Source: a virus (lineage: Duplodnaviria; Heunggongvirae; Uroviricota; Caudoviricetes). Taken from it: a DNA stretch of 33,080 bases. A program made the position numbers and the translations under genes. This document shows positions 1,217 through 29,521 of this stretch, in pieces. The notes beneath the pieces were generated by a model, which was not told the origin of the DNA, ran no database searches, and was given only the letters and a program-made list of their open reading frames with translations. The DNA is taken from the IMG/VR virus record IMGVR_UViG_2896601577_000002. The stretch is one strand, 5' to 3'. Every line of letters starts with the position of its first letter. The stretch's first letter is position 1.

Positions 1217-2161
1217 TCATTGATTCACCTCCTGCCTGTCGTCCGGCATTCGCTCACTACAGCTTATCCAACCATCCGGAGTTACCGGAACTTGTGGAAT
1301 GGCTGTCTGCTCTCGAACGTCATTAGGCGCTATAGGTTCTGCTGCCAACTGACTGGCATATTTGTTAATGGTAACGATAAGCTCTTGCTCAGCCTCATCC
1401 AGACAATCACCGATACCTCGCCTGTCACCGTCAAAATCATCGAAATCGGCACGAATCCTGGCAACCTTCAGGATTGCGGACAACACCTCACTAGGAATTG
1501 CCGGATAGTTGGTTGACGTTTCCGCGATTTCCCGAAAATTATTGGTTGACGAATTCTTGTTTTCCCGAAAGTTTCCGGACTGAAGCATGGCGGCGCGGCA
1601 GGCGTTCCATATTTCGGCAGCAATATCGCGCTCGCTATCGGTTAATTTGTACGTTGAAACATAGCCAGAGAGCATTTCTACGTTTTCCGGAGTTGCTTCT
1701 TCAGGCACTACCGGTGCTGGCTCACGTATTACAGGCTCGCCCATGCGTGATTCTCCCTGCGCCTCTTTCACCATGTGGTCATTGATTTGCTCCAGTCGCC
1801 GAACGTGCTCATCAGCTTCAAGCGCTCGCCGTTTCCAGATGGACAGGTCTTCACGAGCGCCCTGATATGCGTCACCGTATTCGCCGTTAAATACTGGCGC
1901 TGGCGGGGCGATGCGTCCAAGCAACTTATTTACCTCTTTCGCCATCGCGTCATATTTATCTAAATAGCGATTAGCTTCTAAGCAGACTCGGTGCATCTGA
2001 TCTGAGTTAACTCGTTTAACTGGATCTGCTTCCAATGATGCCAGTGCAATCCGTGCCAGTTCTTCCGCTTCTTCTGCTGGCAGTACAACGTTGCTACCCG
2101 GTCCGTATGTTTCGCGCCACTGCTTGATTGTCAGCAGTCGCCCTTTGGTAATAGTGATCAT
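1217..2161 (-). CDS. hypothetical prophage early-region protein (314 aa)
   Basis: Long ORF with coherent codon usage; 4-bp overlap with the next gene. Confidence 0.6.
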   Translation of the reverse strand: MITITKGRLLTIKQWRETYGPGSNVVLPAEEAEELARIALASLEADPVKRVNSDQMHRVCLEANRYLDKYDAMAKEVNKLLGRIAPPAPVFNGEYGDAYQGAREDLSIWKRRALEADEHVRRLEQINDHMVKEAQGESRMGEPVIREPAPVVPEEATPENVEMLSGYVSTYKLTDSERDIAAEIWNACRAAMLQSGNFRENKNSSTNNFREIAETSTNYPAIPSEVLSAILKVARIRADFDDFDGDRRGIGDCLDEAEQELIVTINKYASQLAAEPIAPNDVREQTAIPQVPVTPDGWISCSERMPDDRQEVNQ

Positions 2162-2384
2162 GCCGCGTTTCCTTCTTTCTTATTAACAATCACACCGTCA
2201 TATATTTCATTAAGGTGCCCTCTCAACTCCATGCGCCTTAATGCAGATAACATGTAATCGCATTCAACCTGCTTATTCCCGGTAAATGGCTTATCGTCAG
2301 GATTACCCCAACAGCAATTACCCCTGGGCCATCCATGTACTTTCCGTACTCTTCCGTTAACAACGTGAAGTAATCCTGAAGTGG

Positions 2385-3553
<1,169 letters not shown>

Positions 3554-4463: not shown

Positions 4464-5140
4464 TGATTGCCTCCTTTGCGAAGCTGGGCAGCAAAGTCAA
4501 CTAACCACTCAGTCATTTCAACCTTCCCTACCAGGTCTGAACTAGGGTGCATACAGCAATCACTCTGCGCCGCTTTGAAATCCTTACACTCATATTCTTG
4601 GGCCACCAGATTTTTTGCAGCTTCTATAGCAGCATCCACCCCCTGCGCCCGGACTTCAGCCAGGAAAGCATCAGTGGTTGGCGTTTCAGGTATCTGTCTC
4701 CTCATCCGTTCTATTGCATGATTGAACCCGAAGTCTTCCGCGAGAGATACGTCATCCATATTGTCATTGTCATCCTCAATATCCCGTGATTCTGGAATTG
4801 CAGACTTTATTCCCGCATTCTCCGCTGCCAGCGCCGCGCACTTGGCTTCAAGAGCGGCAACCACTTCCTGATGGTCTTTGTACTTAACGTATGAGCCGGA
4901 GATGTCATCACCTTCGGTGTTTAGCCATGCGTCATTGCAATTCACTGCGTAGGTTCTGATGCTGATGCTCTCCCGCCCCTGACAGACGCCAGGCCAGTCA
5001 ATAAAGTATCCGCAATGCCTACCCTCAGACGTGCGCGCAGGATAAATGCCGTTATGACCCGGCAAAATATATGCTACCCATTCATCTTGCGTTGCCTGTT
5101 CCGCCGCCTCGCGCAGTGCCTGATAGTCAATCTTGCTCAC
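4460..5140 (-). CDS. Ea22-like prophage protein (paralog)
   Basis: N-terminus MSKIDYQALREAAE; 4-bp overlap with the downstream paralog. Confidence 0.65.
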   Translation of the reverse strand: MSKIDYQALREAAEQATQDEWVAYILPGHNGIYPARTSEGRHCGYFIDWPGVCQGRESISIRTYAVNCNDAWLNTEGDDISGSYVKYKDHQEVVAALEAKCAALAAENAGIKSAIPESRDIEDDNDNMDDVSLAEDFGFNHAIERMRRQIPETPTTDAFLAEVRAQGVDAAIEAAKNLVAQEYECKDFKAAQSDCCMHPSSDLVGKVEMTEWLVDFAAQLRKGGNQ

Positions 5141-5441
5141 TGGCAGCCTCCTTTGCCGGGATTTCTAACTTTTGAGTGGTTGTATCAAATTCAAACAACT
5201 TAACCACGTCATCAAACAGGACATAATCACCATCAGGATCTTCAGTCATATCTGCGCCACAATCCTGACCGCACGAGTCGCAACCATCCATATCAAGCTC
5301 GTATCGCTTCAGGTTTGCGATATTTGATAAATTCAGCGCCAGTACAGCCAGGTCATAAACCTCTTCGGCAGTGACATCGCTGTTCAGTCCCATTTCATGG
5401 CGATATATGATTTTTTCTACTCGTTGTTTTGTGATCGTCAT
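5127..5441 (-). CDS. hypothetical prophage protein
   Basis: ORF with ATG at 5441 and GGAG upstream; overlaps the Ea22-like start. Confidence 0.45.
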   Translation of the reverse strand: MTITKQRVEKIIYRHEMGLNSDVTAEEVYDLAVLALNLSNIANLKRYELDMDGCDSCGQDCGADMTEDPDGDYVLFDDVVKLFEFDTTTQKLEIPAKEAASEQD

Positions 5442-5712
5442 TTTTCTCTTCACTCCGATATACAAGGATTACTACACCCCCTCTGCTGATTGCGCGAGCT
5501 GGATCCCCTGGTTCCATGCCGTCAATTCCGAAGGCTTCGGAAAACGCATTCATTGCCTTCTGGCGTTCATCCTGCTTACGGCGTTTATTCCATTTTTTCA
5601 GGAACAACAGCGACAGCCACCGTCCGCTGCAGAACACGATGTAAAAATAACCAAGGAGCGCCAGGCCGACATTCAGGGCCGTTTCTATGGTTAGTTGTGA
5701 GTCAGTTGCCAT
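5395..5712 (-). CDS. hypothetical small membrane protein
   Basis: N-terminal hydrophobic segment followed by a basic stretch; overlaps neighbour, start and extent uncertain. Confidence 0.3.
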   Translation of the reverse strand: MATDSQLTIETALNVGLALLGYFYIVFCSGRWLSLLFLKKWNKRRKQDERQKAMNAFSEAFGIDGMEPGDPARAISRGGVVILVYRSEEKNDDHKTTSRKNHISP

Positions 5713-5992
5713 TTCTTACCTGTTTAAGTAACTGGTTGAACATAACACTTAGGGGATTGCTGTATCCAAACGGCAGATTGTTTACGCAGTACAGAATCAT
5801 TTTGTTTTTTTCTCCAGTTCGTACTATTAACCCATTCCACAATAACCGTGATAATTTATTACTGATAGAAGTTGCGCTTCTTCCAAGTGCGAGGGATATA
5901 TCTTCTCTACTGCAATCTGGATTTTCCTGGATATACTCGATAACGGTCATGTGGTCCCTTTTACTTAATATCTGTTTCGGATTGCATGCCAT
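5702..5992 (-). CDS. hypothetical protein, possibly winged-helix DNA-binding
   Basis: ORF; alternative start at 5950. Confidence 0.45.
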   Translation of the reverse strand: MACNPKQILSKRDHMTVIEYIQENPDCSREDISLALGRSATSISNKLSRLLWNGLIVRTGEKNKMILYCVNNLPFGYSNPLSVMFNQLLKQVRNGN

Positions 5993-5998
5993 GAGTAT

Positions 5999-6556
5999 TC
6001 ATTTCGTTAATAATTTCATCCAGAAGGATTTCAAGCCCTTCTCGACCCATATCTGAAAGAATGAAACCTTTATCAGGGAAGTAGTGAGCATTTTCTGATA
6101 AAGAAACAGCGCTCTTCCCATTCCTTCAGCTTCGCCGTATTTTTGAATTAAATTCCATTCAATATACTGTTGTAAGGCAAATCGAATGGGGCCGGGATAT
6201 ATCGTCATAAACCCATACATCCCGTTATATACCACGGCGTGTTCAGTTGTTCCGTGTTCAGTTGTTCCGTGTTCATTCAGGATATCAATTGTGCCGTTCT
6301 TGTCTTCTTCTTCGTTGATGAATGTCGTCACATACAACCATCGCCACTGAGCAACCTTCATCTCAACCGGAAGTTTACCCAGTAATCCTGCTTCGTCGGC
6401 TTGCGCCAGACACTGAAGGATACGTAAACCTCGCACATTAGGAGTATCGAATTCTCCGGCATCCAGACGACGTATGGCGTCGTGATAATCAATCGTCATA
6501 CTGCCAGTTCGTATACCATTGGCTGTTGCTTCAGCCTGGAATTCATCGTATTGCAT
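5999..6556 (-). CDS. hypothetical prophage protein with internal 15-bp tandem duplication
   Basis: ORF; repeat 6241-6275 encodes EHGTTEHGTTEH. Confidence 0.5.
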   Translation of the reverse strand: MQYDEFQAEATANGIRTGSMTIDYHDAIRRLDAGEFDTPNVRGLRILQCLAQADEAGLLGKLPVEMKVAQWRWLYVTTFINEEEDKNGTIDILNEHGTTEHGTTEHAVVYNGMYGFMTIYPGPIRFALQQYIEWNLIQKYGEAEGMGRALFLYQKMLTTSLIKVSFFQIWVEKGLKSFWMKLLTK

Positions 6557-19103: not shown

Positions 19104-20153
19104 ATGCTTAATACTGTAAAAATATCCAGTTGTGAGTTAATCAACGCCGACTGCCTGGAATTTATCCGGTCGTTACCCGAAAATTCTGTTGACCTGATAG
19201 TCACGGACCCGCCGTACTTTAAAGTGAAGCCTGAGGGCTGGGATAACCAGTGGAAGGGCGACGATGATTACCTGAAGTGGCTGGAGCAGTGTCTGGCGCA
19301 GTTCTGGCGGGTGCTGAAACCTGCCGGAAGTCTTTACCTGTTCTGTGGTCATCGCCTGGCATCTGATATCGAAATCATGATGCGTGAACGCTTCAGTGTG
19401 CTGAACCATATTATCTGAGCGAAGCCGTCCGGACGCTGGAACGGATGCAACAAGGAAAGCCTGCGGGCGTATTTCCCCGCCACAGAGCGCATTCTGTTCG
19501 CGGAACATTATCAGGGGCCGTACCGCCCGAAAGATGATGGCTATGAGGCGAAGGGCAGGGTACTGAAACAGAATGTGATGGCCCCGCTGATTGCTTACTT
19601 TCGTGATGCGCGAGCTGCCCTGGGGATAACGGCAAAACAGATTGCAGATGCCACAGGAAAGAAAAACATGGTGTCGCACTGGTTCAGTGCCAGTCAGTGG
19701 CAGCTACCGAACGAAAGCGATTATCTGAAATTACAGTCGCTGTTTGCCCGGGTGGCAGAAGAGAAACATCAGCGGAGAGAACTGGAAAAGTCCCATTACC
19801 AACTGGTCAGCACATACAGTGAGCTGAGCCGGCAGTATATGGAACTGCTGAGTGAATATAAAAATTTGCGGAGGTATTTCGGTGTGACGGTGCAGGTGCC
19901 GTACACCGATGTGTGGACGTATAAACCGGTGCAGTACTATCCAGGGAAACATCCGTGCGAAAAACCGGCAGAAATGTTGCAGCAGATAATCAACGCGAGC
20001 AGTCGTCCGGGAGACCAGGTTGCAGATTTTTTTATGGGCTCAGGTTCAACGGTAAAAGCGGCACTGGCGCTCGGGCGTCGTGCGATTGGCGTTGAACTGG
20101 AGACCGGACGTTTTGAGCAGACAGTCAGGGAAGTTCAGGATTTAATCGTTTGA
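19104..20153 (+). pseudogene. DNA N6-adenine (DPPY-type) methyltransferase with in-frame TGA at 19416-19418
   Basis: Motif IV DPPY near the N-terminus, motif I FFMGSGST near the C-terminus; both halves in the same frame, separated by a single TGA. Confidence 0.75.
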
Positions 20154-20202: not shown

Positions 20203-20278
20203 GGCCCTTTAGCTCAGTGGTGAGAGCGAGCGACTCATAATCGCCAGGTCGCTGGTTCAAATCCAGCAAGGGCCACCA
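20203..20278 (+). tRNA. tRNA with CAT anticodon, most similar to tRNA-Ile2 (ileX/ileZ-like)
   Basis: Canonical cloverleaf; acceptor GGCCCTT/AAGGGCC; anticodon loop CTCATAA; T-loop TTCAAAT; encoded CCA. Confidence 0.8.
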
Positions 20279-20285
20279 TCACATA

Positions 20286-20358
20286 CCGCCATTAGCTCAT
20301 CAGGAAAGAGCGCCAGCCTTCGAAGCTGGTTGCGCGGAGTTCGGGTCCCGAAGGCGGT
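20286..20358 (+). tRNA. tRNA-Arg(TCG)-like, atypical (possible pseudo-tRNA)
   Basis: D-arm and anticodon arm are canonical (loop CTTCGAA) but the T-stem 3' strand is one nt short, position 58 is G, there is an acceptor mismatch and no encoded CCA. Confidence 0.45.
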
Positions 20359-20374
20359 TCATTATCTGTATCCT

Positions 20375-20451
20375 GCGTTGTTAGCTCAGCCGGACAGAGC
20401 AATTGCCTTCTAAGCAATCGGTCACTGGTTCGAATACAGTAGAACGCGCCA
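20375..20451 (+). tRNA. tRNA-Arg(TCT)
   Basis: Cloverleaf with anticodon loop CTTCTAA; T-loop TTCGAAT; CCA encoded; one mismatch each in acceptor and T stems. Confidence 0.7.
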
Positions 20452-20466
20452 CACTTATTTTCCCTG

Positions 20467-20490
20467 GCTCGCTTTTGCGGGCTTTTTTTT
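20467..20490 (+). terminator. intrinsic terminator after the tRNA cluster
   Basis: GCTCGC-TTTT-GCGGGC followed by T8. Confidence 0.55.
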
Positions 20491-20686
20491 AAATGTCTCA
20501 CAATTCAGGCGGTTGACTGTTGTCTGGTTTGCGGGGAGTTTGTTAAAAGAAACTGGCATGGTGAATCCCCCTGTGCGGAGGGGCAATCAGCGAGTAGGTA
20601 TATGGGATAATCGCAGATTCAGGTGCTGGTACTGAATTCACCGGGAGGCACCCGGCACCATGCAATGGCACATAGCGCCACTCTCC

Positions 20687-20722
20687 AGCCCCTCTCCGGA
20701 GGGGCTGTTTATATTGATTTTG
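20687..20722 (+). terminator. GC-rich palindromic hairpin with T-rich tail
   Basis: AGCCCCTC-TCCG-GAGGGGCT followed by GTTTATATTGATTTTG. Confidence 0.45.
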
Positions 20723-20741
20723 TCAGATGTGAGTAAACTCC

Positions 20742-21077
20742 TTATGGACTTTGTTGTTTTAGCCCATAAGGACATATTTGCAGAGTGCAACGGTTATTAA
20801 AGCATTCATTCAATACGTTATCTGTATTTGTAGGGCATTCCTGGCTGTTTTTGATTAAATTCCAGAATGTTTTATTGAATGGTACTACGTTGTAAATGGT
20901 TACAGGTAGCACTTTGTTATTGAGCATGATGCCTGTGTGAGTCAGTGTAAATATACTTTCAGGAGGTAAGAAAGCATCCGATTGATACCAGATTATTAAT
21001 TTTATTTTACTCCATATGACTGAAAAAGATATTCCGCATGATGGCTGGATAACTGTATCAATCACAATCCACTTCAT
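20742..21077 (-). CDS. hypothetical AT-rich moron protein (111 aa, Cys-rich C-terminus) at the position stx occupies in Stx phages
   Basis: Minus-strand ORF with AGGA upstream of the ATG at 21077; local GC content far below flanks. Confidence 0.4.
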
Positions 21078-22391
21078 TTGGTTTCCTTGTTTATGCATTG
21101 CTGGTGATGTTCTGAAAAGTATAAATGATATTTTTGAATGTAAACCATAGAGCAGAATTATTTTTCTGATGTTGTTTATTGTTTATTTAAATGCAGGGTG
21201 GTTTATATCTCGTCTTGTAGTTTATCCATGCATATCTGCTTGATGATGAGGTTTTTATTTAAGGTATGGTTTTGTGTTTTTTCTGTATTACATGTCAGGT
21301 ATTTTAAAGAATCATTTTTCAGATGGTGGAAAGAACCATGGCATTTAAACACTATGATGTTGTCAGGGCGGCGTCGCCGTCAGATCTTGCGGAAAAGCTG
21401 ACACATAAACTGAAAGAGGGCTGGCAGCCGTTTGGTAGTCCGGTGGCCATAACCCCTTATACTCTGATGCAGGCGATTGCAGCAGAAGGTGCAGTAATCA
21501 GCGCCACCAGCAACCCGGAGTATTACTTTGTTGTGGTTCTGGCAGGGCAGTCAAACGGCATGTCGTATGGTGAAGGCCTTCCGCTGCCGGGGACATATGA
21601 CCGTCCGGACCCGCGTATTAAGCAACTGGCGCGTCGCAGTACGGTGACACCGGGCGGTGCAGCATGCAAATATAACGACATCATTCCGGCGGACCATTGT
21701 CTGCATGATGTGCAGGACATGAGCCGTCTTAACCATCCGAAAGCGGACCTGTCAAAGGGGCAGTACGGAACCGTGGGGCAGGGGCTGCATATCGCCAAAA
21801 AACTGCTGCCGTTTATACCGGCGAATGCGGGCATTCTGCTGGTTCCGTGCTGTCGTGGTGGTTCAGCGTTCACCACCGGAGCTGATGGCACATACAGTGA
21901 CGCGAGTGGTGCCTCGGAGAATTCAACCCGCTGGGGTGTGGACAAGCCGCTGTATAAGGACCTTATCGGTCGAACAAAAGCGGCACTGGAGAAGAACCCG
22001 AAAAATGTGCTGTTTGCCGTGGTGTGGATGCAGGGGGAATTTGATTTTGGCGGTACGCCGGCAAATCATGCCGCACAGTTTGGTGCGCTGGTTGATAAAT
22101 TCCGTGCAGACCTGGCGGATATGGCAGGCCAGTGCGTCGGTGGCTCTGCTGGCGGTGTTCCCTGGATATGCGGGGACACGACGTATTTCTGGAAGCAGAA
22201 GAACGAATCCACGTACCAGACGGTGTACGGCAGCTATAAAAATAAAACGGAAAAGAATATCCATTTCGTACCGTTCATGACCGATGAGAACGGGGTGAAT
22301 GTGCCGACGAACAAACCGGAAGAAGACCCGGACATTCTGAACCGCCCCGGGAATCCTGGAGACTAAACTTCCTGAGAAAGAGGTAAACAGG

Positions 22392-22718
22392 ATGACTAAA
22401 AATACTCGTTTTTCCCCCGAAGTCCGTCAACGGGCAGTCCGTATGGTTCTGGAAAGTCAGGGCGAATATGACTCACAATGGGCGACAATTTGTTCCATTG
22501 CTCCAAAGATTGGCTGTACGCCGGAGACTCTGCGTGTCTGGGTTCGCCAGCATGAGCGGGATACCGGGGGCGGTGATGGAGGGCTCACCACCGCTGAACG
22601 TCAGCGTCTGAAAGAGCTGGAGCGTGAAAATCGTGAACTGCGCCGCAGTAACGATATCCTTCGCCAGGCTTCCGCTTATTTTGCGAAGGCGGAGTTCGAC
22701 CGCCTCTGGAAAAAGTGA
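22392..22718 (+). CDS. IS629 OrfA
   Basis: 108-aa product [19 protein letters not shown]... Confidence 0.9.
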
Positions 22719-23605
22719 TGCCACTGCTGGATAAGCTGCGTAAGCTGTACGGGGTCGGACCGGTATGCAGTGAACTGCATATTGCCCCGTCAACGTATTA
22801 CCACTGTCAGCAACAGCGACATCATCCTGATAAACGCAGTGCCCGTGCGCAGCGCGATGACTGGCTGAAGAAAGAGATACTGCGCGTATACGATGGGAAT
22901 CATCAGGTATACGGTGTGCGTAAAGTCTGGCGTCAGTTGTTACGGGAAGGTATCAGAGTGGCCAGATGCACTGTGGCACGTCTCATGGCGGTTATGGGAC
23001 TTGCCGGTGTTCTCCGGGGTAAAAAGGTCCGTACGACCATCAGCCGGAAAGCCGTTGCCGCAGGCGACCGCGTAAACCGTCAGTTCGTGGCAGAACGACC
23101 TGACCAGCTGTGGGTAGCTGATTTTACTTACGTCAGCACATGGCAGGGCTTCGTCTATGTGGCGTTCATCATTGATGTGTTTGCCGGATACATTGTGGGG
23201 TGGCGGGTCTCATCGTCCATGGAGACGACATTCGTGCTGGATGCACTGGAGCAGGCGTTATGGGCCCGTCGACCGTCCGGCACGGTCCATCACAGTGATA
23301 AAGGTTCTCAGTATGTATCGCTGGCCTACACACAGCGGCTTAAGGAAGCCGGATTACTGGCATCAACAGGAAGTACAGGCGACTCGTATGACAACGCGAT
23401 GGCGGAGAGCATCAATGGTCTTTACAAAGCGGAGGTAATACACCGTAAGAGCTGGAAAAACCGTGCAGAAGTGGAACTGGCCACACTCACGTGGGTGGAC
23501 TGGTATAACAATCGACGATTGCTGGAAAGGCTGGGCCATACTCCTCCGGCAGAAGCAGAAAAAGCTTATTATGCTTCCATCGGAAACGATGATCTGGCAG
23601 CCTGA
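22715..23605 (+). CDS. IS629 OrfB transposase
   Basis: 296-aa IS3-family DDE transposase. Confidence 0.9.
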
Positions 23606-24655
23606 GTTCACAGATAAAACACTCTCCAGGAAACCCGGGGCGGTTCAATTCCGGGTATCGGTTATTACGGTTCGAAATGGCGTGACAGCTCAGCCACCTG
23701 GACGTCACAGGACAGGGCGAGCCATTTCAGTTCATGGGCTCGCCGTGGGATTATTTCCGACCGTCTGGCAACGGCGATTCTGAGCTGCGCGGGTAAGTCT
23801 TCTGCGTTTGTTAATGGTACTGCCGGGGTGGTTGTTCCAGACAGGCCGGTTACCACCTCAGAGTCTGTAATTTTTTACGATGCCAAAAAAGCTACAGACA
23901 ATCAGCTGAAACCTTATGGCTGGGACGGTATGTATGGCAGACGCACACTGGTTGATGACAGCGGCAATAAAGCTCTGCGAATTGAGAAAAATAACAGCGC
24001 GAAATCCTGGTCAATGTACTGTGATATTGCTGCAGACAAGGCAAAACTTTTACTGGAAAAAGGCGGGGAAATTGCTGTCCGGTTTAAAATCCCCGAAAAC
24101 GTCAATCTTGAGACAACCAGAAACAAGTATGCCTTTGGTTTGTACTGGCGAATAGCGGAATGGCCGGGTGAGGGTGGTGAAGGCCATCTGAGTTCTTTCT
24201 TTGTCCAGACAGATAAAGCCAGTATTAATGTTGCATACCATCATACAGTTAATCAACAAAAAGAACTTGGCACGTTTGGCGCATTCGACCATGACTGGCA
24301 TACGCTTGCATTTAAATTTAAGGGCAGTAACAGCATTAATGTTACTCCGGTGCTTGATGGTGTGGATGGACAGGCGTTTGACCTGGTGAAATGGGCCAAT
24401 ACTGCTAATGGACTCAACAGGTTTGTCATTACGGATATTACAGGTAGTGCAGAAACCTACCCTGTACTTATTGATACGGTGGAAGTTAAAGCAAACAAAG
24501 CTGGAGCAGCCGCATAATTGCTAAAAAAAGCCGCCAGCGGCAGGAATGGAAGCTGGCGGAGGTAATCCCAATGGAGAATGTAAAGAAAAGATGCTTTCGT
24601 ACATTGGTTTTTAAATGAAAACAATTCTCATTGTCAACCATAACGGTAAGAAATT

Positions 24656-27537: not shown

Positions 27538-27906
27538 GCGACCTTATTAACCATGCGCGGTATTGTCGCCGTATCCCCGCATTAACAGAGACCGCAGCCC
27601 GACCGGGAGACTCCTCTGCGCGAGTGTGCGGGGATAATCAAAAACGATACACACCGGGGTTTACCGCGTTAACGGAGCGCGGCGTTGTCCCCTCATGGTC
27701 GCTGGTCCGGTGCGATGGTGGAAGAAACCGGACGATGTGTTACCTCGCAAGCTCTGTTATGTCATGTGTCTGATTTGTGATTTAAGTCGGATAATTGTCG
27801 TTGCCATTAAGCAGAGGATTGATGACCGACAGGGTGGCATTGTTAGAATAAGTGAACCGCCCCGGGAATCCTGGAGACTAAACTTCCTGAGAAAGAGGTA
27901 AACAGG

Positions 27907-28233
27907 ATGACTAAAAATACTCGTTTTTCCCCCGAAGTCCGTCAACGGGCAGTCCGTATGGTTCTGGAAAGTCAGGGCGAATATGACTCACAATGGGCGA
28001 CAATTTGTTCCATTGCTCCAAAGATTGGCTGTACGCCGGAGACTCTGCGTGTCTGGGTTCGCCAGCATGAGCGGGATACCGGGGGCGGTGATGGAGGGCT
28101 CACCACCGCTGAACGTCAGCGTCTGAAAGAGCTGGAGCGTGAAAATCGTGAACTGCGCCGCAGTAACGATATCCTTCGCCAGGCTTCCGCTTATTTTGCG
28201 AAGGCGGAGTTCGACCGCCTCTGGAAAAAGTGA
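27907..28233 (+). CDS. IS629 OrfA
   Basis: Identical product to copy 1. Confidence 0.9.
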
Positions 28234-29120
28234 TGCCACTGCTGGATAAGCTGCGTAAGCTGTACGGGGTCGGACCGGTATGCAGTGAACTGCATATTGC
28301 CCCGTCAACGTATTACCACTGTCAGCAACAGCGACATCATCCTGATAAACGCAGTGCCCGTGCGCAGCGCGATGACTGGCTGAAGAAAGAGATACTGCGC
28401 GTATACGATGGGAATCATCAGGTATACGGTGTGCGTAAAGTCTGGCGTCAGTTGTTACGGGAAGGTATCAGAGTGGCCAGATGCACTGTGGCACGTCTCA
28501 TGGCGGTTATGGGACTTGCCGGTGTTCTCCGGGGTAAAAAGGTCCGTACGACCATCAGCCGGAAAGCCGTTGCCGCAGGCGACCGCGTAAACCGTCAGTT
28601 CGTGGCAGAACGACCTGACCAGCTGTGGGTGGCTGATTTTACTTACGTCAGCACATGGCAGGGCTTCGTCTATGTGGCGTTCATCATTGATGTGTTTGCC
28701 GGATACATCGTGGGGTGGCGGGTCTCATCGTCCATGGAAACGACATTCGTGCTGGATGCTCTGGAGCAGGCGTTATGGGCCCGTCGACCGTCCGGCACGG
28801 TCCATCACAGTGATAAAGGTTCTCAGTATGTATCGCTGGCCTACACACAGCGGCTTAAGGAAGCCGGATTACTGGCATCAACAGGAAGTACAGGCGACTC
28901 GTATGACAACGCGATGGCGGAGAGCATCAATGGTCTTTACAAAGCGGAGGTAATACACCGTAAGAGCTGGAAAAACCGTGCAGAAGTGGAACTGGCCACA
29001 CTCACGTGGGTGGACTGGTATAACAATCGACGATTGCTGGAAAGGCTGGGCCATACTCCTCCGGCAGAAGCAGAAAAAGCTTATTATGCTTCCATCGGAA
29101 ACGATGATCTGGCAGCCTGA
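28230..29120 (+). CDS. IS629 OrfB transposase
   Basis: Identical product to copy 1. Confidence 0.9.
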
Positions 29121-29188
29121 GTTCACAGATAAAACACTCTCCAGGAAACCCGGGGCGGTTCAAAGACTTATTCTTATCTGTGCCGGGA

Positions 29189-29521
29189 ATGAAAATGAAA
29201 AGAAACCTTCCGTTAATTATTTTGTTGTCTTCTCTGGTTATGGGCTGTACGCAACATAAAACAGATATGCCCCGACAGTTGGTTAAGGCATTACCACAAT
29301 ATCCGGCCTATGCAGCGGCAAATTATATAAAGGGACGGGTTGATGTGAGGTTTGATATTGGTGCTGATGGTACTGTCACCCGAATTGAGTTTATTCGTTC
29401 AGAGCCGCACCATCTGTTTGATGAGCAGGTTGTAAAGGCGATGGCAAAATGGCGATTTGAGAAGGACAGGCCGTGTAAAGGCGTGAAGAAAACGTTTATC
29501 TTTAGTCCTTCCGCACCCTGA
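29189..29521 (+). CDS. putative lipoprotein with TonB C-terminal-like domain
   Basis: Signal peptide with lipobox (LVMGC); segment YPAYAAANYIKGRVDVRFDIGADGTVTRIEFIRSEPHHLFDEQVVKAMAKWRF resembles the TonB_C fold. Confidence 0.55.
   Translation: MKMKRNLPLIILLSSLVMGCTQHKTDMPRQLVKALPQYPAYAAANYIKGRVDVRFDIGADGTVTRIEFIRSEPHHLFDEQVVKAMAKWRFEKDRPCKGVKKTFIFSPSAP

Follow-up and report, generated by a model that had tools for sequence, protein, structure and literature searches.

Two-hybrid and pull-down experiments and assays of RpoS stability have shown that the anti-adaptor IraL of strain CFT073, the product of c1429 (named iraL; PMC12890032), binds RssB and stabilizes RpoS in exponential growth (Hryckowian et al. 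2014, PMC4045071). Small RNAs of the STnc100 family, which is related to PasD (PasD1/PasD2) (bioRxiv 10.64898/2026.05.13.724894), are encoded in eleven Rfam copies in EDL933; these are transcribed, and one of them (STnc100_4) was confirmed by Northern analysis (PMC5331693). EcOnc27 of the Sakai prophage Sp5 is the same RNA as sRNA103 in EDL933, that is the Hfq-binding copy located 3′ of stx2B (PMC4104026, PMC7873438, PMC12711010), and both its binding to Hfq and its detection by Northern analysis have been published (PMC4104026, PMC7873438, PMC12711010, PMC5331693). Convergent sRNA dyads such as EcOnc27/AsxR and EcOnc06/AgvB occupy the lambdoid "moron" site in eight prophages of Sakai (Tree et al. 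2014, PMC4104026).

Here, we analyze a late-region interval of a Caudoviricetes sequence of 33,080 nucleotides (IMG/VR record IMGVR_UViG_2896601577_000002; this whole stretch is henceforth referred to as the window). An initial annotation, made from the letters alone, had described the interval as a toxin-moron locus lacking stx. Our results make it very probable that the interval represents the cargo zone in the late region of a lambdoid, Stx phage-like prophage and carries two known, convergent genes, an sRNA gene of the STnc100/EcOnc27 family and iraL. The finding is real but ordinary: contrary to the novelty implied initially, the open reading frame (ORF) corresponds to iraL and the hairpins to the Rfam family STnc100. 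Since both elements have been described under these names before, and experiments have characterized IraL, neither is new.

Comparison with described loci

The potB prophage or island of CFT073 resembles the window in carrying three tRNA genes, STnc100, iraL on the opposite strand, and a DUF1737/nanS-p gene, with a DNA identity of 98.6% over 1006 bp. Unlike the window, it contains about 640 bp of extra DNA, including a DUF3927 ORF, between the tRNA genes and STnc100, as well as an IS200 upstream of the tRNA genes; its nanS-p gene is truncated. The Stx phages (933W, Stx1 phage) share with the window a backbone of Q, tRNA genes, terminator, STnc100, nanS-p, and lysis genes. In contrast to these phages, the window is without stx genes, and its empty stx slot is distinct from the slot that holds iraL. 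As in the sRNA dyads of the Sakai prophages, an STnc100-type sRNA on the forward strand is opposed by an accessory gene on the minus strand, the pair lying between PR′-proximal cargo and a conserved esterase ORF. The minus-strand partner differs, however, being the protein-coding iraL cassette in the window and not an anti-sRNA of 51–60 nt.

IraM of K-12 (YcgW, b1160) belongs to the same NCBIfam family as IraL, NF007393, and shares its PmrD-like fold and its four C-terminal cysteines. At the DNA level, homology between K-12 iraM and the window is limited to the coding sequence (71%), while flanks and promoter differ; outside the coding sequence, BLAST found nothing in the iraL cassette that is homologous to the flanks of K-12 iraM. 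K-12 iraM adjoins prophage e14, with no STnc100 nearby. According to published work, Mg2+ starvation induces IraM, whereas exponential phase is when IraL is active.

Layout of the locus

The features of the interval are listed in Table 1. All elements that had been described initially are present, namely two hairpins, an AT-rich stretch (20721–21322; 32.9% GC versus 50.1% for the whole window), and a minus-strand ORF of 111 codons. The first hairpin (CCCCC/TGTGCGG/AGGGG) lies at 20567–20583, with a predicted stem formed by 20568–72/20579–83; the second (AGCCCCTC/TCCG/GAGGGGCT) lies at 20687–20706, just ahead of a T-rich tail. The term "GC-rich hairpin block" is appropriate for the stems but not for the block, which as a whole has only 52.6% GC, so that GC-richness is confined to the stems. 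The gene order typical of Stx phages was borne out as well: in addition to the three tRNA genes and nanS-p, the window holds Q-type antiterminator ORFs and a split N6/N4 methylase gene. No stx gene was detected anywhere in the window by tblastn with the A and B subunits of Stx1 and Stx2 (best E = 1.2).

Table 1. Features of the late-region interval, in coordinates of the window.
Feature	Position	Strand	Basis or remark
Three phage tRNA genes	20203..20451	+	ARAGORN: Met(CAT), Arg(TCG), Arg(TCT)
Intrinsic terminator 3′ of the tRNA genes	20466..20491	+	GGCTCGC-TTTT-GCGGGCT, then T8
Empty stx slot	20490..20493		933W homology breakpoints
STnc100-family sRNA gene	20527..20716	+	Rfam RF02076 match
Two further STnc100 helices	20616..20655	+	Fold and covariation
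STnc100 Rho-independent terminator	20686..20716	+	8–9 bp GC-rich stem, loop TCCG, T-rich tail
iraL moron cassette	20707..21336		630 bp, ~33% GC
iraL coding sequence	20742..21077	-	111 aa and stop
iraL 5′ UTR and putative sigma70-type promoter	21078..21144	-	Homology to published 5′-RACE end
AT-rich region from the upstream side of iraL to the nanS-p start	21145..21336		~80% conserved in a diverged iraL-like cassette
nanS-p 5′ part (DUF1737 and SASA esterase)	21338..22366	+	Truncated by IS3-family insertion

The first tRNA gene, Met(CAT) according to ARAGORN, carries a tRNA-Ile (ileZ) label in 933W and in RefSeq relatives. The IS insertion that interrupts nanS-p was absent at this site from all complete E. 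coli genomes searched. The matches that define the locus are far beyond chance (Rfam E = 1e-28, NCBIfam E = 5e-48). Sequence identities, boundaries, fold, and synteny were obtained in the present analysis.

Two cargo slots and the missing stx genes

Slot boundaries were taken from BLAST breakpoints against related phages. The alignment with 933W runs to 20489, the end of the post-tRNA terminator, and restarts at 20494. The 933W DNA between these two points consists of approximately 1.3 kb carrying stx2AB, with stxA2/stxB2 at 1963–3203 of the 933W locus and the flanks at 1572–1909 and 3245–3335. As the breakpoints bracket stx2AB, the stx slot corresponds to 20490–20493 and is empty in the window. 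At the site equivalent to the terminator that follows the tRNA genes, the 933W annotation also places a terminator upstream of stx. The interval had initially been taken for the place where stxAB would lie; the insertion point of stx2AB is instead located upstream of the hairpin block.

A second discontinuity is found further downstream. Homology to Stx1, Stx2, and stx-negative phages stops at 20706, in the stem of the STnc100 terminator, and restarts at 21337, the base immediately preceding the ATG of nanS-p. The iraL cassette takes the place of a spacer of about 231 bp that separates STnc100 from nanS-p in stx-positive and stx-negative relatives. The spacer of 933W encodes AsxR, an anti-sRNA, on its minus strand (88 bits), while no match to AsxR or AgvB (RF02702, RF02703) was obtained in 20400–21400 of the window at E ≤ 1. 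These results refine the view of the late-region cargo zone, which comprises two separable slots that can both be filled at once: a stx slot 5′ of STnc100 and an AsxR/iraL slot 3′ of it.

In Stx2e-like prophages, the order is tRNA genes, stxA, stxB, STnc100, an iraL-like gene on the opposite strand, and nanS-p. The iraL-like gene sits in the same slot as iraL of the window, its product is 76% identical to IraL, and the homology to the window includes the promoter region. Likewise, in a human STEC genome, stx2A and stx2B are followed by IS1203, by an oppositely oriented IraM-like gene, and by nanS-p. The co-occurrence of stx2 with IraL/IraM-like genes in some prophages indicates that iraL is no substitute for stx, so that the initial picture of cargo standing in for the toxin genes has to be abandoned; iraL occupies the second slot.

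Could the interval be a deletion scar left by the loss of stxAB, with the hairpins as leftover terminators and the AT-rich DNA as non-functional filler? The junction between the tRNA terminator and STnc100 looks as expected from a precise loss of stx, the second hairpin (20687–20706) is a terminator, and homologues of the block occur in all related phages. The same junction, however, is present in the stx-negative phages Nil3 and phi296, with 82–96% identity across it, so that the site may never have held stx. Moreover, the block corresponds to a conserved sRNA of several helices, shows covariation, and belongs to a family for which Hfq binding has been published (PMC4104026). The AT-rich DNA is an intact, highly conserved gene, the identical CFT073 protein of which is experimentally functional, and it is present as a bounded cassette in about one quarter of the complete E. 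coli genomes. Because STnc100 and iraL are both intact, conserved genes, a pure scar is very unlikely. The initial annotation had itself anticipated such an outcome, with ordinary terminators present in all related phages next to an untranslated or non-conserved ORF. Half of this holds: the hairpins do occur in all related phages, but as parts of an sRNA gene, whereas the ORF is conserved and its product has been characterized in CFT073. On the preferred reading, a cargo zone with two known genes, stx is simply missing from its slot, 3′ of the tRNA terminator and 5′ of STnc100, and iraL fills the second slot, which elsewhere holds an anti-sRNA of the AsxR/AgvB type.

An sRNA gene of the STnc100 family

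The hairpin block is a full-length STnc100/EcOnc27-family sRNA gene, an element already known. The covariance search for a structured RNA that the initial annotation had suggested returned RF02076 (STnc100) with a score of 126.9 bits, compared with a gathering threshold of 47, over model positions 1–206, that is the full length of the model (E ~1e-28). A permissive Rfam scan of 20400–21400 for other structured RNAs (AsxR, AgvB, PasD-like) gave only STnc100 and a tRNA fragment. The sRNA gene of the window has the helices and the terminator of the RF02076 family, as well as its position immediately upstream of nanS-p.

The first of the two hairpins (20568..20583) is an internal 5-bp stem-loop of STnc100 that is nearly invariant across 8 homologues. 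Of the further helices, the one at 20616–20638 contains three pairs with compensatory changes and the one at 20641–20655 (CCGGG-AGGCA-CCCGG) is invariant among homologues; both are enclosed by a long-range stem formed by 20556–63/20656–63. In total, 4 of the 34 consensus pairs are altered on both sides, which, in an alignment of 7 sequences, amounts to modest statistical support, and the thermodynamic z-score of the window sequence alone is only -1.9. The terminator was also recovered independently by a terminator scan.

Homologues at the same position were found in 933W, the Stx1 phage, the stx-negative phage phi296, CFT073, and the Stx2e-like prophage L009. The 933W copy starts 75 nt past stxB2 and scores 207.7 bits. 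The window copy shares approximately 79% nucleotide identity with it over the alignable 91-bp 5′ segment, and its central variable region is 10–18 nt shorter. In addition, unlike the 933W copy, it is not preceded by stx, and the tail that follows its terminator stem consists of iraL cassette DNA. Published qPCR primers for "STnc_100" in STEC vesicles (PMC12370729) match the window exactly at 20557–20576 and 20630–20649.

The invariant core of STnc100 starts near 20555 (GCAUGGUGAAUCCCCC); conservation among homologues sets in about 35 nt before the Rfam match begins. Upstream of 20527, a consensus scan for promoters failed to reveal a convincing sigma70 site. A TTGAC and a TGTTAAAA motif are conserved, yet too widely spaced for a canonical promoter. 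From homology, the plus strand would yield a multi-helix sRNA of the STnc100 type, ~160–190 nt long and ending at its own intrinsic terminator, which may bind Hfq and act by base-pairing.

We also considered that the block might encode protein in place of an sRNA, either through a plus-strand ORF of 46 codons (20660–20800) or through a minus-strand ORF (20543–20671). ORFs do exist on both strands, and PGAP and older annotations place hypothetical coding sequences here; the minus-strand ORF, for instance, is a partial hypothetical protein in the PGAP annotation of relatives. Furthermore, some STnc100 copies of EDL933 reach ribosome-coverage values above 1 in RIBOseq, but most show low ribosome coverage (PMC5331693). 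Within the region, homologues differ in length through indels of 1, 4, 7, and 10 nt, which argues against coding and hence against the small ORFs occasionally called here by automated annotation. In addition, conservation follows the RNA helices, with compensatory pairs. The plus-strand ORF, finally, runs across the terminator into the iraL cassette, so that its C-terminus would be specific to this locus. Taken together, a coding function of the block is extremely unlikely.

The AT-rich ORF is iraL

The protein search proposed in the initial annotation showed the ORF product to be identical to CFT073 IraL over its entire length (111/111; c1429, WP_000871291.1) and 59.5% identical to K-12 IraM. 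Residues 1–110 match the IraM/IraL family NF007393 with 162 bits against a cut-off of 121 (E = 4.7e-48), and the IraM chain of PDB 8TWD is matched with E = 9e-32. A Pfam scan of the ORF gave no family at E ≤ 0.01, although precomputed Pfam tables list PF11183 (PmrD) for relatives of the product. Given this blank, the identification relies on NCBIfam, PDB, and direct identity. By these sequence criteria, the product is the RssB anti-adaptor IraL, a paralogue of IraM.

An AlphaFold2 (AF2) model built from a family alignment of 40 sequences has a mean pLDDT of 88 and superposes on 8twd_A with a Foldseek E-value of 6.6e-9, a target-normalized TM score of 0.90, and an rmsd of 1.1 Å. The next Foldseek matches are PmrD structures, in agreement with a PmrD-like β-barrel fold of residues 1–78 (Foldseek probability 1.00, TM ~0.7). 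PmrD, which binds PmrA, nevertheless differs from IraL in having only 14–21% identity, no four-cysteine tail, and another response regulator as its target. Of the 14 residues that contact RssB in 8TWD (listed in PMC10844676), 10 are identical in IraL, the remaining four being T13S, L75I, H63N, and I64V.

The published 5′-RACE end of CFT073 iraL (PMC4045071; ACATCACCAGCAAGGCATAAACAAGGAAACCA) is identical to the window sequence in 31 of its 32 nt. By homology, the transcription start site is placed at 21110 on the minus strand, giving a leader of 33 nt with AAGGA as Shine-Dalgarno sequence. The putative promoter is of the sigma70 type, with a -10 element TATACT at ~21118–21123 and a -35 element TTTACA at ~21139–21144. 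The ORF would have 118 codons if translation began further upstream, at an ATG (21098) located 12 nt from the mapped 5′ end of the leader. CFT073 has AGG at this site (one G-to-T change), so that the single mismatch to the 5′-RACE end is the source of the upstream ATG. As this ATG lies inside the leader and is not preceded by a Shine-Dalgarno sequence, the 111-aa protein is the likely product; use of the upstream start would add 7 residues. On the minus strand, no U-tract follows the hairpin.

The initial proposal of an independently acquired moron has thus held up for the ORF, which has sharp bounds (20707/21336), a low GC content, and its own sigma70-type promoter with a matching start site. 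The AT-rich ORF is supported as iraL, a real moron with its own promoter that is predicted to be independent of the phage late operon. The AT-rich region between the iraL promoter and nanS-p is ~80% conserved in a diverged iraL-like cassette. Separately, a PhoP-box-like repeat is present at 21173–21189 (16/17 match); in very AT-rich DNA such a match is too weak for a claim.

Transcription of iraL would start from its own sigma70 promoter on the minus strand, independently of the phage late operon. The PmrD-like β-barrel of IraL would bind RssB and so prevent the delivery of RpoS to ClpXP, and RpoS would thereby be stabilized even in exponential growth. In this scheme, RssB binding, RpoS stabilization, and the transcription start site are taken from the literature on the identical CFT073 protein, and Hfq binding and expression from that on STnc100 homologues. 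We infer that the window copy is expressed in its own host.

A novel, cysteine-rich, effector- or toxin-like moron at the stx position, flanked by novel structured elements, would agree with the stx-less Stx-phage gene order and with an AT-rich, reverse-oriented, cysteine-rich ORF, but has next to no probability left, being refuted by the identity of the ORF product with the characterized anti-adaptor IraL (PMC4045071) and by the breakpoints that put stx insertion upstream (20489/20494), while the structured element is Rfam STnc100 and stx2 coexists with IraL/IraM-like genes in the same prophage.

The four-cysteine tail

The C-terminal cysteines of IraL are residues 81, 92, 97, and 102, which gives the pattern C-x10-C-x4-C-x4-C and corrects the C-x9 spacing reported initially. 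Conservation was assessed in the family alignment, whose 40 members reach down to 24% identity and cover at least nine enterobacterial genera (Escherichia, Salmonella, Citrobacter, Kosakonia, Cronobacter, Klebsiella/Raoultella, Franconibacter, Pantoea). The only invariant residues are W72, C81, C97, and C102, with C92 and P103 conserved in at least 90% of the sequences. The near-invariance of C-P-x9-C-x4-C-x4-C-P makes the tail the best conserved part of the family. In the AF2 model based on this alignment, the tail has a pLDDT of 71–79 and is not disordered.

In the sole crystal structure of IraM, the tail, described as less conserved and flexible, had been deleted for crystallization, full-length IraM being unstable and insoluble (PMC10844676). 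The near-invariant tail of IraM/IraL has thus been set aside by structural work so far. Among the papers searched, none was found that links IraM or IraL to cysteines or zinc. From its conservation, we tentatively suggest a role for the tail in binding metal (Zn or Fe-S) or in redox sensing, through which the stability or activity of the anti-adaptor could be set, a possibility to which we give rather less than even chances. If true, the tail would couple RpoS stabilization to metal or oxidative status.

Distribution in E. coli

The value of these results lies mainly in annotation and triage, as an apparently unknown toxin substitute turns out to be a common, characterized module. Combining an sRNA that, by homology, is Hfq-dependent with an anti-adaptor predicted to stabilize RpoS, the module illustrates how lambdoid prophages may rewire host stress regulation. 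Using megablast, the 889-bp interval was found in 2860 of 5426 complete E. coli genomes, and at least 80% of this STnc100-iraL module was covered in 1428 of them (~26% of the 5426). In those genomes, the ORF is labelled "anti-adapter protein IraM".

Distribution of IraL/IraM-like genes among related prophages

In prophages with Stx2-type toxin genes, a gene resembling iraL/iraM lies between stxB/STnc100 and nanS-p (related loci L009, 3206-5105; L010; L011; and L015, 2297-5470). Compared with those of phage 933W, the toxin subunits of L009 are 94% (A) and 85% (B; 87 aa) identical. As stx2-type and IraL/IraM-like genes are found in the same prophages, a single phage carries both a toxin and an RpoS-stabilizing factor. 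In the Escherichia albertii prophage L012, the IraM-like gene is located upstream, not downstream, of STnc100, so that this family is not confined to a single late-region slot.

In an alignment of 40 proteins of the IraM family, which represent at least nine genera, the four-cysteine tail (C81, C92, C97, C102 and P103; residues 81-103 of the IraL protein encoded at 20742-21077) is invariant or nearly so. This region is absent from the published IraM structure (PMC10844676).

Upstream region of iraL and annotated CDSs opposite STnc100

Relative to CFT073, the minus strand carries a G-to-T change at window position 21098. As a result, the AGG triplet at +13 of the iraL leader becomes an ATG in frame with the gene, giving an alternative, 118-aa version of the open reading frame. 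PhoP controls iraM in K-12. A PhoP-box-like sequence, TGTTTATTGTTTATTTA, is found 63-79 nt upstream of the iraL transcription start site and fits the pattern (T/G)GTTTA-N5-(T/G)GTTTA at 16 of 17 positions; because the region is very AT-rich, this match may be due to chance.

Hypothetical or pseudo CDSs are annotated antisense to STnc100 in four related loci (L001, 6096-6221; L004, 33270-33395; L005, 2857-3180; L007, 3010-3339). Since indels among STnc100 homologs break the reading frame, these CDSs are probably annotation artefacts.

Late-region backbone and mobile elements

The late-region DNA methylase gene is probably disrupted, its two ORFs matching separate parts of the N6_N4_Mtase profile. 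The Q antiterminator family is matched by both members of a pair of overlapping ORFs, suggesting that the Q gene of the window is frameshifted or two-part; intact Q in the relatives L009 and L010 measures about 273-276 aa. ARAGORN assigns the tRNA listed below as Met(CAT), whereas its homologue is annotated as tRNA-Ile (ileZ) in 933W and RefSeq, the CAU anticodon being taken as lysidine-modified.

Features of the window and of the E. albertii prophage L012
Feature	Coordinates	Description
isrK and C4 antisense RNA	11254-11439	adjoining
Q antiterminator ORFs	17709-18209; 18056-18529	PF03589 (each)
Methylase ORF 1	19104-19418	N6_N4_Mtase positions 1-79
Methylase ORF 2	19575-20153	N6_N4_Mtase positions 111-219
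tRNA	20203-20278	
PhoP-box-like sequence	21173-21189	
IS3-family element	22367-23830	
IS3-family ORFs	22392-22718; 22715-23605	
ALIL frameshift pseudoknot	22673-22789	within IS3-family element
nanS-p C-terminal part	23828-24517	DUF6645, continuing past IS
Second ALIL match	28188-28304	
L012 late region	4678-6324 (L012)	Q, ORF6N gene, IraM-like gene (opposite strand), DUF3927 gene, STnc100, nanS-p

An IS3-family element that shares about 96% identity with IS1203/IS629 interrupts nanS-p; this insertion is absent from all complete E. coli genomes in the collection searched. A second ALIL match with an identical score indicates another IS copy at about 27900-29250.

The Rfam matches to isrK (62 bits) and C4 antisense RNA (75 bits) are adjacent, which is the immunity RNA arrangement of the P1/P7 type. 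The same pair is present in L012 (7072-7259), where it adjoins the Q gene.
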